From a virus: DNA of 64,000 bases. Positions 20,601 through 27,170 of the stretch are shown piece by piece. The notes below the pieces were generated by a model. The model was given only the letters and a program-made list of their open reading frames with translations, ran no database searches and was not told where the DNA came from. The stretch is from IMG/VR virus record IMGVR_UViG_3300047496_000092, positions 1 through 64,000 of that record; one strand, 5' to 3'. The translations under genes and the position numbers were made by a program. Within the stretch, counting starts at the first letter, position 1, and each line of letters opens with the position of its first letter.

Positions 20601-22004
20601 ATGCTGGTGACGACAGACAAAGATGTTGCGCGGCAGCATCTTCGTGAGGTCAACGCAGCGATAAGCAAGTTGGCGATGAACGCCTACCGTGCTTACTATA
20701 TGACGCTGGAGATTATGATCGCGCGCTACCAGCATCAGATGTGGCGAACGATCATGTCGTACGAACCTCGTCTCGCTGGTGCAGTGCGCGACAAGTCGTA
20801 CAAGCTGGTCCTGCACGACATGATTCACGACCTAAGCCGTCTCGGCAATCGTGTACTCGCACAGGCAGCAGACGTTGGGTTCGAGCGTTGCCTCAATGAC
20901 CTCAAACTGTGGGGGTGCGTCAGCGAGTTCACGACGCCGGTCGTTGCACCGCCGGGGTTGAGCGCAAAGTCGATTGGCGAGAACGACACCTACCTCATCA
21001 AGTCGCTGATGCCGTGGATGGAAGAGCAACTGCTGGGAGTGAAAGAGCCCAATCTCATCCCAGCACTGCTTGTAGCGATGCACAGTCGCATCAACATGTA
21101 CGGCCACTTCGTATGGCGTACTAGCGAACGAGCGTTTCTCAACGGCTTGCGCGAGTACCAGATCGTGAAGAACAAGCAGCCGAAGATGCGTGAAGCCGGT
21201 ACTGCGTCAAGCGGTGATCACGATCATCCAGGCAGACCTGGTAAACGCGGAGGCTCCGCACCAAGTATGATACCTGGTGTGGCGTTCGTCACCAACTTCA
21301 AAGCTGGCAATGAGTTTGTCGTAGGCAACGGTAGCAACATTGAAACGGTGCAACCACAAACGGCCACTCCAGATCAGCAGCAGTTGATCGTAGACGAGGT
21401 TCGCAAAAACCTCACCGAACCAGGTATGCCCTCACAACTAGATGAGCTTGGGACCGGCTACGTTGCCAGTGACGAAAACGGTATCCACGCAGATGCGGTT
21501 ACGCTCGGCAACTCTAAACTGTATGTGAATCTGACCGCATGCCATGAGGACACGCAAACGTACTTAGGGGAGGACCCAACCGACCCCAGTCTGTCGTATG
21601 TGCCGCCTGATCTCTTCGGCAGCAAGATGACCGAGGAAGGCTATATGCGCATAACCGTTGACCACGAAATGGGTCATGTGCTGATGGCGAATATAACGCG
21701 CTCGCAGATGATGCAGTTTGCCAGCTATGTGACACCGGAGATCGCTAGCAAAATCTCAGGCTACGCTGCGTCTAACATGCATGAGGCGTTTGCTGAAGCG
21801 TACACAGCTTACGTCCACCACGACATGAAGAACATCTTCATACGCGACTACTTCGATAGACTGCTGCAGGGCAAGAGCTTCGTTGAGGCTGCTTCAAGTG
21901 ATCGCTACGACAGCGGCATAGCCGTCATTATGGATGACTTCGACAAGGGTCCGACGTACATAATGAAAGACGGAACGCGGATTCACTACCCGGTAAAAAT
22001 CTGA
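20601..22004 (+). CDS. MuF-like minor head protein fused, via a junction motif, to an anthrax-lethal-factor-like (M34/ATLF) zincin
   Basis: SRINMYGHFVWRTSERAFLNG is MuF-like. Junction motif at 21192-21257. HEMGH lies at 21663-21677, with a downstream HEAFAEAYTAY. Confidence 0.65.
   Translation: MLVTTDKDVARQHLREVNAAISKLAMNAYRAYYMTLEIMIARYQHQMWRTIMSYEPRLAGAVRDKSYKLVLHDMIHDLSRLGNRVLAQAADVGFERCLNDLKLWGCVSEFTTPVVAPPGLSAKSIGENDTYLIKSLMPWMEEQLLGVKEPNLIPALLVAMHSRINMYGHFVWRTSERAFLNGLREYQIVKNKQPKMREAGTASSGDHDHPGRPGKRGGSAPSMIPGVAFVTNFKAGNEFVVGNGSNIETVQPQTATPDQQQLIVDEVRKNLTEPGMPSQLDELGTGYVASDENGIHADAVTLGNSKLYVNLTACHEDTQTYLGEDPTDPSLSYVPPDLFGSKMTEEGYMRITVDHEMGHVLMANITRSQMMQFASYVTPEIASKISGYAASNMHEAFAEAYTAYVHHDMKNIFIRDYFDRLLQGKSFVEAASSDRYDSGIAVIMDDFDKGPTYIMKDGTRIHYPVKI
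21192..21257 (+). repeat. junction motif copy 1
   Basis: EAGTASSGDHDHPGRPGKRGGS, in frame in gene 20601..22004. Confidence 0.9.
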
Positions 22005-25000
22005 TGGCTGCACTGCAAGCACTGTTTGTCGGTGCAGACGATAGCGAGACGTGTGCCGGTTGCGAAGACGCGATGGACGGCAACCCGTATGACGTAGACG
22101 ATTGTCCTGAACCCGGCTCGTTCGAATGCATGTCGCGGTGCAGACACATGATTCAGCTTGTCGGCGGGGATGAAGACGACGACGAAGCCGAGGGTCCAAC
22201 GCTACGCTATGTCGGCAGTGTTGGCTTTGAACCGAACAACACACCGTTCTCGGCATTCCCCTCGCTCGTTGACGAAGACGTTCCCGAAGTACCGACGCCT
22301 GAAGGCCATGAGCAGATGGCGAAAGCGAGTGCAGAGCCCAACCTTGACGACTGGGAACAGAACCCGACTGCGCTCAACGAACTGCTCGGCATCAACTTCG
22401 CCGATCTGTCAAACGACGACATCCAAACGCTCGCCTACAAGATCATCAACACCGGGCTCGACCCCGAAGACATCGTAGACGGCCTCGCGCTTACACCGGA
22501 CGAAGCCGATAAGCTGACCGCAGCCGCTGAAGATGCTGAAGGCGAATTGGTTGACGACTTCGGCGATATGTACATTGCCGAACTGTTGGATGACGGCAGC
22601 GATGTTCGTATCTTCGACATGATGCAGAACAACCATCGCATCCACGACATCATCTTAGCGATGGCATCGGCCGGATTCGATGACGAGCATGCGAATCAAG
22701 CGATCACACTCGCATCGGTCATCAACATGTTTGCTTCAGGTGCGGTCGCATACATCGGTCAAGATGGCCGTTGGTATGTGACGGTTCCGACCGGCTTTCA
22801 AGAATCGCTGCGTGAAGGTGGAGCAGGGAGTGGCGATCATGGTCATGCTGACGTACCTGGTCGGCGTGGTGGCAGCGCACCAGCAACGACGCGCCACTAT
22901 CTGATCAGTGGTCGTGTGCAAGGCGTCAAGTTTCGTGCGAACGCCATCGACGCAGCCAATCAGTTAGGCATCCACGCAGATGCGCGCAATTTGCCTAGCT
23001 CGCAGGTCGAGATTCAAGCTAGCGGCGACCCCGACAAGCTAGATCAGTACGAAGCGTACCTGCACAAAGGCAACCCCGGCTCTATCGTGACCAGCGTTTC
23101 AACACTGCCGGGGACGATGAAATCGCTATCGGAATTCAACCCAGGTGAGATTGGGCCTGATCGCAAGAACTTCAGTAGCGAGGAAGAGTTCAACAACTAC
23201 TTCGGCTTCACGAAGGTTGCTGGCGGTAAGCTCGGTGACGGTGTAAGCTGCACAGCGTACTACGAGCGTCCGATCACGCTCTCGACGCGGTTCCTTGCGT
23301 CATTGCCGCGTCGCTATCAAGCATCGACGTATTCAGCCTGGAACGCTAAGTATAACGACCCTAATCATGTGCAGTGGAATCGTGTTGACGCTATTGCAGA
23401 CGAGATTCGTCAGCGTCACTATGGCGATGTCGTCACCGTACAGGTCACACCAGACGGCAAGCCGACCATCAGTGAAGGCCAGTGGATTATAGACAAAGCC
23501 GAGAAGGATGGCTCGAAGAACATTCGTACCGTCGTGCAGTTCTTTGGCGGTGGCGAAGGCTTGTGGACGCCATACAACCACCTGCAAGAGTCGCTGCGTG
23601 AAGGCGGTGCAGGTAGCGGCGATTACGGTCACGCAGGCCGACCCGGAAAAGTTGGAGGTAGTCTCGGAACAGATCGACAGATCAGTGACGACTATGCTGC
23701 GAACTTATCTAGAATCGACCCTATCGTGAAATCCTTCGTAGACGACAATGTGACTACGGAGAACTTTGACGGCATTTTGTACCGTACAGCGCGTACGGCT
23801 AGAGATGCCGACGAGATTAAGCAGGGCCGAAAATTCTACAACACAGACGCTGAGTCAGGAACGTACGGGCCAGGACTGTACTTTGCTAGCCTAGAGAAAT
23901 CGGCTGAGATGTACGGTAAGTGGATGTTCAAAGTGCATGTGACGGCTAAACTAGCCTCAATGGATAGAAAAGCCTACATGAAGCTTCTTGGTGCAATCTA
24001 CGCAGGTGGAGAAGACGGCGATGAGCTAGCTAAGAATCTTATAGCAGACTGGTTTCAATCGCACGGCTACGATGGTATACGCATTCGCAATGTTGTGCCT
24101 AACACTGCGCGCACAAACGATGGCGATTACATCGTAGACTTCAAAGCTGATCAGACATTGAAAGGCTTCGTTGAAGCAGAAGCTGGTGCTGTTGATGCTG
24201 TCATTCTGTGGAAGCGTTCATTACTTGAAGGCGGTGCAGGCAGTGGCGATCACGGACATGCTGGCCGTAAAGGATTCGTCGGGGGTAGTGCGCGTGGGTA
24301 CAGTGCAGATACCCTGACCGGCTACAGCGATGATTCGATGCACGGCTACAGTTCAGACTCAACGAGCGGCTACAGCAATGATTCGACAACCGGCTCAAGT
24401 GCATGGGCAAATCCGTTCACTACGATGTCAACTGGGACGCCTGAAGTTACCGTCAATCCGTTCAAAGGCTTCGACGGAATCAAAACTTTTCGGGGCACAG
24501 ATGAGCAACTATCCCAGGTTGGCGACATTCTTCAACGGTTCGTACCGCCAGCCATGCGATCACAGATCAACGGCAACATCTTCTGTCTCACGCCTGACGA
24601 GAAATTCGTTGGCGTCTCACCATCGCTCACAGCAATGCAGAATGCAGGCAAACTTGGTGTTAACCTAGACGCGCTGCAGCTTGGTGGACTGACGGTGTAC
24701 GGCGACAAAACGCTCTACATCAGATCAGGGCAGATTACCGACACGACCGTCATCCATGAGATGGGGCATCTCTACGATCAGACGCTTGGTGACGGCAAGA
24801 AGCTGTACTCTGAATTGTCGGGGTCAGAAGTCAACGAGGCATGGCAGGACGCGAACAACAACCCCAACGGTTCGCTTGCCGATCACTTCGTCACGCCGTA
24901 CGCAAGCAAAGGAACGGACGAATTCTTCGCTGAATCGTTCCGTGCCTACTGTGGTGCCAACAGCTATCTGTTCGAAAGCAAGTTTCCGAACATGATTGCA

Positions 25001-27027: not shown

Positions 27028-27170
27028 AGCAGATCGCTGCGTCAGCTACAGACCTCACGACCGGCATGGTAGCGACGATCTACGATGACGGCACGACAGA
27101 GGTGAAGCATTTAGAGCCCGACAAAGACGATAAGCCAGCGAAAAAGATGCTGCCAATTCGCCCACAGTAG
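27024..27170 (+). CDS. 48-aa ORF paralogous to the N-terminal leader of the preceding polyvalent gene
   Basis: Hand translation gives MKQIAASATDLTTGMVATIYDDGTTEVKHLEPDKDDKPAKKMLPIRPQ. The ATGA overlaps the stop at 27027. It is below the track's size cut-off. Compare MKQLIASGSNLETGMLVRVYDDGSVEHE at 25066. Confidence 0.45.
   Translation: MKQIAASATDLTTGMVATIYDDGTTEVKHLEPDKDDKPAKKMLPIRPQ

Follow-up and report, generated by a model that had tools for sequence, protein, structure and literature searches.

Introduction

The internal head proteins of phages T4 and phiKZ have an N-terminal propeptide, or capsid-targeting sequence, and prohead protease cuts after L/I-x-E or S/A/G-x-E. Some viral polyproteins are cleaved at Gly-Gly sites; adenain recognises (M/I/L)xGG↓x and coronavirus PLpro recognises LxGG↓. 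Docking signals include the cargo-loading peptides of encapsulins and the capsid-targeting sequence of T4. AT-hooks share the core R-G-R-P, while collagen-like and polyglycine-II structures consist of Gly-X-Y repeats. Polymorphic toxins contain junction or pre-toxin motifs, such as VENN in CdiA, PT-TG and DPxGL in Rhs proteins. These are exchange points for cassettes and, in some systems, also sites of proteolytic release. Polymorphic toxins were described by Zhang et al. 2012 (PMC3482391). Phage-type polyvalent proteins were described by Iyer, Burroughs, Anand, de Souza and Aravind in 2017 (PMC5512222). They are multi-domain, phage-encoded proteins, presumed to be packaged and injected. Briefly, they combine ARTs, zincin-like metallopeptidases, Zeta toxin, RadC, ParB, GNAT and LPD domains. 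Processing by their own metallopeptidases has been proposed, with no site named (Iyer et al. 2017, PMC5512222).

Here, we describe three phage genes with seven copies of one short repeated element. They lie in a 64,000-nucleotide stretch of viral DNA, referred to as the window. The best explanation is that the element is a free-standing short linear motif, a "pre-module" junction signal.

Results

The initial annotation placed three overlapping genes 3' of the portal gene. Open reading frames, their overlaps and PHROG matches to the portal bear this out. The layout is as follows.

16299-17912, terminase large subunit gene, 5' of the portal gene (phrog_675, 9.8e-112)
17909..20596, + strand, portal gene (PHROG portal families phrog_21, 7.5e-13, and phrog_10963, 1.1e-11); abuts the array on its 5' side
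20601..22004, + strand, gene 1, 467 aa: conserved N-terminal module, motif copy 1, zincin
22004..25069, + strand, gene 2, 1021 aa: N-terminal module, motif, acylphosphatase module, motif, ART, motif, repeat linker, zincin
25066..27027, + strand, gene 3, 653 aa: 34-aa leader, motif, ART, motif, transglutaminase-like module, motif, zincin

Genes 1 and 2 overlap in TGATG (22002-22006), and genes 2 and 3 in ATGA (25066-25069). All three genes have the same final unit of motif, linker and zincin.

The seven in-frame copies of the motif proposed from inspection were confirmed. A motif HMM, run against six frames of the whole window, gave seven matches, all in-frame, scoring 43.8-51.2 bits. No match above noise occurred outside the three genes, and none in the window's portal or major capsid genes. 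When the three proteins were shuffled 20,000 times, a regular expression for the core gave 0 matches. The copies, all on the + strand, are listed with their HMM scores.

21192..21257, + strand, copy 1, EAGTASSGDHDHPGRPGKRGGS, 48.1 bits
22814..22876, + strand, copy 2, EGGAGSGDHGHADVPGRRGGS, degenerate, with D-V in place of G-R, 44.6 bits
23600..23662, + strand, copy 3, EGGAGSGDYGHAGRPGKVGGS, 51.0 bits
24227..24289, + strand, copy 4, EGGAGSGDHGHAGRKGFVGGS, 43.8 bits
25168..25230, + strand, copy 5, EGGAGSGDHDHPGRPGKVGGS, 51.2 bits
25828..25893, + strand, copy 6, ESGTASSGDHGHAGRKGQVGGS, 43.8 bits
26356..26421, + strand, copy 7, EVGTSSSGDRGHAGRKGKVGGS, 45.6 bits

The consensus first given for the motif holds for most copies but not for copy 2 (22814), which reads H-A-D-V-P-G-R-R-G-G-S and has lost the near-invariant G-R. 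L-x-E stands before six of the seven copies and M-x-E before the other.

Beyond the window, the motif profile matched 6,641 representative proteins (clusters) at E<=1e-3 and 190 at E<=1e-30, with up to 9-10 copies per protein. The motif was present in more than 120 IMG/VR viral contigs, compared with 24 contigs among 185,579 species genomes. It is largely limited to phage contigs and is carried by thousands of uncultivated phages. The general consensus, of about 20 residues, is [KRNLE]-G-G-P-G-S-G-[NHD]-[FHWY]-G-H-x-G-R-[PK]-G-x-[VRI]-G-G-S. About 14 residues are near-invariant across the family. The edges are sharp, with information content of about 0 beyond positions -12..+16. A weakly hydrophobic stretch precedes the motif and a Gly/Ser/Pro-rich spacer follows. 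Searches of Pfam models, NCBIfam models, PDB chains and searchable papers returned no match. Hence, as the initial annotation supposed, this is not a named element, and it appears to be undescribed so far.

One early reading was that D-H-x-H forms a metal-binding docking site. Five window copies do have G-D-H-[GD]-H; the other two replace the first His, with Y in copy 3 and R in copy 7. However, a single His is invariant family-wide; ~73% of copies have N for the D, and ~61% have F for the first H. Hence, judging by the family alignment, the D-H-x-H triad is a lineage peculiarity, and metal binding is a far-fetched role for the motif.

The modules between the motifs are as follows.

21258..22001, + strand, gene 1 linker and zincin; HEMGH at 21663-21677, HExxH at aa 355
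22004..22813, + strand, gene 2 N-terminal module; homologous to the N-terminus of L145_g831 and to L151 aa 837-1073 (related loci)
22895..23104, + strand, acylphosphatase domain (Pfam PF00708, 1.6e-14, 54.4 bits against a cutoff of 22.5)
23672..24223, + strand, ART module 1, ART-PolyVal-like; 55% identity to the gene 3 ART; module family fam3
24299..25066, + strand, gene 2 linker and zincin; HEMGH at 24755-24769; weak Pfam Peptidase_Mx1, M90 and ATLF matches
24319..24395, + strand, 24-nt tandem repeat, ~3 copies, encoding (G-Y-S-x-D-S-x-x), in the linker 3' of copy 4
25231..25827, + strand, ART module 2, ART-PolyVal-like; fam3 member; direct Pfam ART-PolyVal match E=0.029, below cutoff
25900..26340, + strand, transglutaminase-/papain-like Cys-His-Asp module; triad conserved in homologs
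26431..27024, + strand, gene 3 linker and zincin; HELGH at 26728-26742; Pfam ATLF 0.0012, M90 0.0042

The acylphosphatase-like domain is thus confirmed above the Pfam cutoff. It sits inside a larger module (gene 2 aa 293-531), and NCBIfam acylphosphatase models gave many matches, all under curated cutoffs. The two ART paralogs have indirect support, from the match of a fam3 representative to ART-PolyVal at 6.9e-24. Three ATLF-like zincins had been suggested. A zincin-like HExxH does end each gene, but the ATLF scores of 19.0 and 13.6 bits are below the Pfam cutoff of 27.4. The gene 2 and gene 3 zincins are paralogs (35% identity, E=4e-31); the gene 1 zincin has HExxH...EAFAE in common with that of gene 3 (E=7e-4). 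For the Cys-His-Asp module the triad is well kept, with C57 in 19/20 homologs and H87 and D99 invariant. AF2 modelled it at pLDDT 88. For the proposed transglutaminase-like fold, the Foldseek search was not significant, though its top matches were Cys peptidases; there was no Pfam match and no PDB sequence match. This module family is the largest in our motif-protein sample, which is enriched for gene-3 homologs; it occurs in 18% of motif proteins but in 3/143 unbiased loci.

The N-terminal part of gene 1, described as MuF-like, matched nothing in Pfam or PHROG, and that assignment was not confirmed. Homologs (30-35% identity) occur in five related loci, in each case in the first gene after the portal; four of these loci are distinct, as L149 and L150 are identical in this region. 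In gene 2, the first ~55 aa (CxxC...C...CRH) bear a weak resemblance to the zinc ribbon at the C-terminus of MuF (hhalign against a MuF alignment, E=0.0038, probability 8.7%).

Placement of the motif at module boundaries was borne out, and the description of the genes as polyvalent virion-type proteins is supported. The motif is always N-terminal to a module of ~190 aa (median gap between motifs, 192 aa) and was never at the C-terminus of the motif proteins surveyed. The first motif lies <=60 aa from the N-terminus in 71% of proteins; in at least 110 of 175 (about two thirds) it follows a leader of 6-45 aa. The 772 segments between motifs were grouped into 317 families, whose neighbours vary greatly. 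About a quarter of the recognisable modules in the loci have no upstream motif.

Related phages show how modules are exchanged. Their portals are 42-55% identical and homology stops at the motif; what follows the first motif varies from a zincin to an ART exotoxin to some other module. L149, L150 and L151 have a zincin homolog in the same post-motif slot as gene 1. In L149 and L150, a copy of the whole acylphosphatase module (48% identical) follows the zincin of the gene-1 homolog and so sits in a different gene than here. The cassette exchange first suspected thus holds among this phage's relatives, with homology breakpoints that coincide with the motif. From these alignments, the units shuffled among genes and phages are evidently bounded by the motif.

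The suggested AlphaFold comparison of linker and fold predicts that the motif is disordered; AF2 gave pLDDT 30-38 at the motifs, with folded modules on either side. This bears on self-association. The Gly-every-third run (GNF-GHA-GRP-GEV-GGS) could form a polyproline-II/polyglycine-II helix, so that copies pack, bundle modules and oligomerise the proteins. The family consensus has five or more successive Gly-X-Y triplets with invariant Gly, many proteins have 3-10 copies, and a motif that is its own partner would explain universal conservation. However, AF2 returned no packed structure for the three gene 3 copies, from a shallow alignment. Among 244 motif-bearing reading frames in the fetched loci, 181 have one copy, though many are cut by locus ends. 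There was no match between motif proteins and the Pfam collagen or AT-hook families. We consider self-association improbable.

The copies had also been read as conserved in nucleotide sequence, and as DNA-level recombination joints. Nucleotide similarity is present (46-75% pairwise identity among the seven copies) but arises because the amino acids are conserved. Third positions of the Gly codons vary freely, and the invariant Ser is encoded by both AGY and TCN codons. The longest exact runs common to copies are 7-20 nt. Free synonymous sites and such short matches speak against DNA joints. Codon usage indicates that selection on the motif is strong and acts at the protein, not DNA, level. A passive joint, either a flexible linker kept by descent or a recombination hotspot with no biochemical role, would fit the homology breakpoints and predicted disorder. 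Yet linkers do not hold ~14 near-invariant residues over thousands of divergent proteins, and hotspots are at odds with the two Ser codon families. Its chances are slim, marginally below those of self-association.

We surveyed head genes in the 143 motif loci. MuF is found in 56 and DUF2213, which PHROGs annotates as a head maturation protease, in 33. Seven ORFs have the motif directly 3' of a DUF2213 protease domain, and one motif protein has a Peptidase_S78_2 module. No major-capsid ORF of related loci has the motif; one portal ORF does, and is joined to modules via motifs. No protease family and no conserved head protein is common to all motif loci. In the window, no DUF2213-type protease was detected and a T4-type protease was not found. 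The prohead protease assigned to 51602..53554 was not upheld; this ORF (51.5-53.6 kb) has no detectable protease similarity; apart from a PHROG whose function is unknown, it matches only a glycosidase-like Pfam family, and that weakly.

The embedded zincins might instead cut specifically at the motifs, in cis or trans, as the initial annotation proposed. All three window genes end with motif, linker and zincin, the post-motif zincin slot is conserved in L149, L150 and L151, and Iyer et al. 2017 (PMC5512222) proposed metallopeptidase-mediated processing. However, HExxH occurs in only 71/177 motif proteins (40%), leaving ~60% without a zincin, and motif ORFs with HExxH occur in 31/143 loci. The close relative L145 has four motifs and no HExxH in the genes examined after its portal (g443, g187 and g831), though a zincin may lie elsewhere in such genomes. 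Hence, zincin cleavage is poorly supported as a general mechanism and is unlikely to be the motif's role.

The main rival is docking without cleavage. Each motif would tether its module to a conserved head partner (capsid interior, portal, MuF or packaged DNA) for loading and/or co-ejection. Leaders before N-terminal copies are as short as 6-8 aa, so there is no module there to release. Modules in separate genes, such as gene 3 and L145_g187, also keep the motif, which is largely on phage contigs in a head-gene context. The motif stays constant among phages whose portal, terminase and protease families differ, pointing to a more universal partner; DNA would be one such, and the G-R-P-G core is similar to the G-R-P core of AT-hooks. 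Conversely, a single signal per polyprotein would be enough, yet up to 10 are retained. Residues flanking G-R-P are often acidic (E in 44% at +6), unlike AT-hooks, and no shared head protein was found. Modules without an upstream motif count against docking and processing alike. Docking is possible but, on balance, doubtful.

Discussion

Our preferred, still tentative, explanation is that the motif is where effector modules packaged in the capsid are matured or released; this falls somewhat short of probable. The products of the three genes are polyvalent proteins of the phage type, in which effector or enzyme modules with no relation to one another are strung together. They are produced from the block of head-morphogenesis genes and presumably packaged in the capsid. 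We infer that the polyprotein is handled, most likely cleaved, at the motif inside the (pro)head. This would remove the short leader and free modules for ejection. Candidate proteases are a head maturation protease or peptidase modules borne by the polyprotein itself (zincin or Cys-His-Asp). Cleavage at the motif, as such, is plausible. Several observations weigh against it. An invariant site of 20 residues exceeds a typical protease recognition site. No protease family co-occurs universally, the window has no DUF2213-type protease, and the motif is missing from major capsid genes and on the portal in one related-locus ORF only.

Comparison with described systems places the motif as follows. 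Module families of polyvalent proteins are found between the motifs here. However, the main text of PMC5512222 has no linker, glycine-rich or junction motif, and the motif marks a subset only, being absent from the virion polyvalent protein of Stx phage phi24B. The G-R-P-G core is AT-hook-like but its flanks are not basic. Similarly, Gly recurs at every third position over ~15-20 residues as in collagen or polyglycine-II, but for ~5 triplets only. The adenain and PLpro sites share with the motif invariant G-G pairs after hydrophobic residues, and a papain/transglutaminase-like Cys-His-Asp module is frequent in motif proteins. Conversely, that module is missing from most motif loci, and cleavage here is putative.

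The layout resembles that of the internal head proteins of T4 and phiKZ, where a conserved site also comes after a short leader at the N-terminus, and the window copies follow L-x-E or M-x-E. However, this Glu is lineage-specific, K, D, R, L or N being usual at the position, and the motif is much longer and internally repeated, with no T4-type protease alongside. Polymorphic toxins differ in that their motifs are unrelated in sequence, with one junction per protein rather than many, and serve a secretion system rather than a phage head, where release is our inference. Like them, this phage places a short conserved motif directly N-terminal to a highly variable cassette, at the point of exchange. 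Handling of the motif would be analogous to that of the T4/phiKZ propeptide and cleavage sites and of polymorphic-toxin junctions.

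A glycine-rich motif recurs in three genes beside the portal

The three overlapping genes downstream of the portal gene (genes 1-3) carry a glycine-rich motif of ~20 residues. The motif is a largely phage-restricted element, predicted to be disordered, that stands before modules. It is selected at the protein level and delimits exchangeable units of head-associated polyvalent proteins.

Features of the window referred to in the text
16299-17912, terminase large subunit, just upstream of the portal gene
17909-20596, +, portal gene, directly upstream of genes 1-3
20601-22004, +, ORF, gene 1 (467 aa)
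22004-25069, +, ORF, gene 2 (1021 aa)
25066-27027, +, ORF, gene 3 (653 aa)
38530-39492, cellulase (GH5)-like ORF, weak match
46621-47346, methyltransferase (Methyltransf_24)
47316-47972, glycosyltransferase-like ORF
54108-55220, major capsid gene

Genes 1 and 2 meet at a TGATG overlap, genes 2 and 3 at an ATGA overlap. The order terminase, portal, three genes is the same in five related phage loci (L145, L149, L150, L151 and L155). The portal protein is long (895 aa), with a Pro/Gln/Ala-rich low-complexity C-terminal region of ~200 aa, and lacks the motif. Three ORFs situated after the polyvalent genes and before the capsid gene (38530-39492, 46621-47346 and 47316-47972) suggest roles in the modification of sugars or DNA.

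Seven in-frame copies of the motif had been annotated and all are present (21192, 22814, 23600, 24227, 25168, 25828 and 26356). A motif profile applied to all six frames of the 64-kb window detected only these seven, with scores of 43.8-51.2 bits. The core pattern had 0 matches in 20,000 shuffles of the three proteins. The annotated consensus needs amending at copy 2, which is degenerate and reads H-A-D-V-P-G-R-R-G-G-S. Two length variants occur in the window lineage: E-GG-A-GSG-D and the one-residue-longer E-x-G-T-[AS]-SSG-D. These were noted at 25828-25893, 26356-26421 and 21192-21257 and in the genes of L145. Separately, a 24-nt tandem repeat (24319-24395) encodes ~3 units of G-Y-S-x-D-S-x-x in the linker between copy 4 and the gene 2 zincin.

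The initial annotation described the copies as conserved in nucleotide sequence. They are not; DNA identity is 46-75% and shared exact runs span just 7-20 nt. The third base of motif Gly codons varies, and the invariant Ser is encoded by AGY and TCN alike. The conserved entity is the peptide, not the DNA.

The motif is widespread in uncultivated phages

A profile of 66 motif copies was used to search 1.84 billion representative proteins. This matched 6,641 proteins at E<=1e-3, 1,061 at E<=1e-10 and 190 at E<=1e-30. Proteins longer than 2,000 aa carry up to 9-10 copies each. Nearly all homologs of gene 3 have 1-4 copies, separating unrelated modules that include Zeta toxin, RadC, 2'-5' RNA ligase, DUF7178, ARTs and zincins.

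The family consensus is [KRNLE]-G-G-P-G-S-G-[NHD]-[FHWY]-G-H-x-G-R-[PK]-G-x-[VRI]-G-G-S, with a Gly/Ser/Pro/Ala-rich spacer after it. The E...G-D-H-G-H form in the window is a lineage variant. In a logo of 257 copies, partly biased by the search pattern but in agreement with 670 copies from the profile search, information is about zero before -12 and after +16 from the invariant His. A D-H-x-H metal-binding site, as proposed initially, is not conserved in the family and is hardly credible as the motif's function. The motif contains a run of five or more triplets that each begin with Gly (GNF-GHA-GRP-GEV-GGS), a spacing that a self-associating PPII-type element might have. Across the family, positions -10 and -3 covary, a sign of lineage subtypes; mutual information between motif positions reflected these subtypes and not contacts. 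We consider self-association improbable.

For a DNA pattern scan we used the stringent form GSGxxGHxGRPGxxGGS. More than 120 IMG/VR contigs were among the matches listed. Across prokaryotes (185,579 species, one genome each), only 24 contigs matched, nearly all from MAGs. Matches of prophage-like appearance lie in large contigs, for instance ONJM01000002.1 and WGNK01000020.1. Three motif contigs (L127, L132 and L135) were binned with archaeal MAGs of Methanomicrobiales, Bathyarchaeia and Methanomassiliicoccales. These are either archaeal viruses carrying the motif or binning errors. Almost all motif-bearing polyvalent proteins come from uncultivated phages. Among GenBank phages, megablast of the region and tblastn of gene 2 found no useful relative. 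The same was true of the portal, the consensus motif peptide and a 9-copy protein, searches in which the low-complexity filter may hide motif-only matches. A profile from a 46-aa motif alignment retrieved only short fragments without informative names from a 5.8-billion-protein collection.

As supposed at the outset, the motif is not a named element; it has no match in Pfam, NCBIfam or PDB chains. In a Pfam scan of 51 multi-copy proteins no family corresponded to the motif, and the commonest family occurred in only seven. No NCBIfam model covers it, and among PDB sequences the motif profile matched only FlgE, by chance. Literal motif strings had no match in 8 million full texts. Key papers on polyvalent proteins (Iyer et al. 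2017, PMC5512222) and MuF toxins make no mention of a linker or junction motif. We conclude that this is a real and widespread junction motif of phage polyvalent proteins, extending beyond the scope of the initial annotation and unnamed as far as searchable.

Genes 1-3 encode polyvalent proteins

Genes 2 and 3 each encode at least two unrelated domains in one polypeptide (acylphosphatase, ART and zincin in gene 2; ART, Cys-His-Asp and zincin in gene 3). All three genes are phage-encoded and lie beside head-morphogenesis genes. The acylphosphatase assignment was confirmed by Pfam (PF00708, 1.6e-14; score 54.4 bits, cutoff 22.5). As annotated, the two ARTs are paralogs of each other. A direct match of a window ART to ART-PolyVal (PF18760) scored 15.6 bits against a gathering cutoff of 31.2; BLAST clustering groups both ARTs with a family in which the representative matches ART-PolyVal (6.9e-24, 85.6 bits).

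Each gene does end in an HExxH zincin (HEMGH, HEMGH and HELGH in genes 1, 2 and 3, respectively). A downstream Glu ligand helix, E-[AF]-F-A-E, follows each HExxH by ~45-57 residues. The gene 2 and gene 3 zincins are paralogs (E=4e-31), and that of gene 1 has HExxH...EAFAE in common with that of gene 3. Three zincin Pfam families are matched weakly. Judged on sequence, the modules qualify as zincin-like metallopeptidases in the general sense. The anthrax-LF label is not sustained; ATLF (PF07737) scored 19.0 bits for gene 3 and 13.6 for gene 2, below the cutoff of 27.4, and the Pfam scan gave no ATLF match for the gene 1 zincin.

The module at 25900-26340 had been described as a transglutaminase-like Cys-His-Asp fold. 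The triad is conserved but a significant fold match is absent. Its AF2 model is confident (pLDDT 88). Foldseek with the isolated module gave E values of 0.39 or worse, the non-significant top matches being cysteine peptidases, and the module has no Pfam or PDB sequence match. Foldseek with the full gene 3 model was uninformative because most of that model is of low confidence.

The N-terminal part of gene 1, annotated as MuF-like, matched nothing in Pfam, PHROGs or a custom MuF profile, and a search with this N-module found no match. The N-module (20601-21191) ends in VWRTSERAFLNG, reminiscent of the MuF 'ARTE...N.G' helix. The start of gene 2 (22004-22170) reads FVGADDSETCAGC...GNPY...CMSRCRH, weakly like the MuF C-terminal zinc ribbon. 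Aligned with this ribbon by hhalign, the first ~55 residues of gene 2 gave a weak match (E=0.0038, probability 8.7%). In L151, the homologs of genes 1 and 2 are one ORF. MuF may be split over genes 1 and 2, with a motif and zincin inserted between the halves.

The motif precedes exchangeable modules

Among 175 high-scoring proteins, 71% have a first motif that begins within residues 1-60 (median start 25), and at least 110 have a leader of just 6-45 aa before it. A median of 192 aa separates successive motifs. The last motif is never followed by fewer than 16 residues (median 248, 5th percentile 120). Hence, the unit is motif plus module, and the motif is a pre-module element. Recognisable modules had a motif close upstream in 32 cases, further upstream in 13 and none in 16. 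In the AF2 model of gene 3, pLDDT is 30-38 at all three motifs, in keeping with a linear motif and not with a piece of a fold.

Cutting proteins at motifs yielded 772 segments in 317 families, of which 226 were singletons without annotation. Which families adjoin each other varies greatly; the 40 right-hand neighbours of one 57-member family are of 29 different kinds. We assessed shuffling by module clustering and direct comparison of relatives, in place of BLAST HSP endpoints, which masking of the motifs biases. The relatives comprise five loci with four distinct arrangements (L149 and L150 being the same here) and portals 42-55% identical. The gene 1 N-module is conserved in all five, and homology ends at the motif. 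The module that follows is a zincin in the window, L149, L150 and L151, an ADP-ribosyl exotoxin in L145 and another module in L155. The acylphosphatase-containing module stands behind the first motif in gene 2 of the window, but behind the second motif of the gene 1 homolog in L149 and L150. The alignment between these modules (48% identity) has both ends at motifs. The relatives thus support cassette exchange at the motif, as first suggested; synonymous variation speaks against conserved DNA as the means. That the motif is a passive linker or a DNA hotspot is very unlikely.

A possible role in maturation or release

The genes most often found around motif genes at 143 other loci encode MuF (56 loci), portal (40, by clustering), terminases and DUF2213 (33), the last annotated by PHROGs as a head maturation protease. 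In seven ORFs (L125, L063, L017, L065, L002, L055 and L114) the motif lies directly after the DUF2213 domain and before the C-terminal region. The portal ORF of L076 runs on into further modules through two motifs. One motif protein has a Peptidase_S78_2 module. HExxH occurs in 71 of 177 motif proteins, and the Cys-His-Asp module in 32 of the 177, a sample in which gene 3 homologs are over-represented, and at only 3 of the 143 loci. In the window, the ORF called a prohead protease (51515-53554) shows no protease signal; its only matches are PHROG 29592, of unknown function, and, weakly, a Pfam family of apiosidase-like glycosidases. Nowhere in the window was a head maturation protease recognised, the DUF2213 type included.

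Our tentative preference is that the motif would be a maturation or release site. Four arguments favour this. The layout of leader, site and module parallels the propeptides of T4/phiKZ internal head proteins. In polymorphic toxins, junction motifs frequently serve as release sites too. The motif occurs at protease/C-terminal-region and portal/effector boundaries, where cleavage is expected. Peptidase modules are also common cargo. Cleavage at motifs specifically by the zincins is unlikely. Against any maturation or release site, no protease tracks the motif. Furthermore, the motif is of unusual length and stays the same in phages whose head machinery differs, and where leaders are very short there is nothing to 'release'. 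The chief alternative, a docking or loading signal that is not cleaved, possibly for DNA, is a possibility we rate below release.

Phages are believed to inject polyvalent proteins before any others, so as to disarm the host. Conceivably, the motif could be a portable 'capsid cargo' tag of ~20 residues, recognised by some factor that widely differing tailed phages share, that both admits a module into the head and marks its release site. In that case, any effector cassette could be added by a phage, and arbitrary proteins could be put into capsids by engineers. As a loading or release tag, it would be a tool for packaging cargo in capsids. A near-invariant, sharply bounded junction motif in thousands of phages is a handle on how polyvalent proteins are loaded, separated and released. 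It supplies residues to mutate, a peptide for use as substrate or bait and boundaries for parsing effector modules. Searching for it is also an easy way to find genes for injected effectors in viral dark matter.

Comparison with known systems

The propeptide site of T4/phiKZ-type prohead proteases has an x-x-E consensus. Similarly, L/M-x-E precedes all seven window copies. However, E is rare at that position across the motif family. We rejected this site as the identity of the motif, given that E is not kept family-wide and that the window has no recognised head protease. Resemblance to bacteriocin double-glycine leaders, the kinase Gly-rich loop and Walker A appears only partial, as is that to SecM/RAPP arrest peptides and 2A-like skipping sequences. 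Stx phage phi24B has a virion polyvalent protein that lacks the motif; hence, the motif defines a subset of polyvalent proteins. Polyvalent proteins are a known system, and the motif and its motif-plus-module grammar appear to be new.
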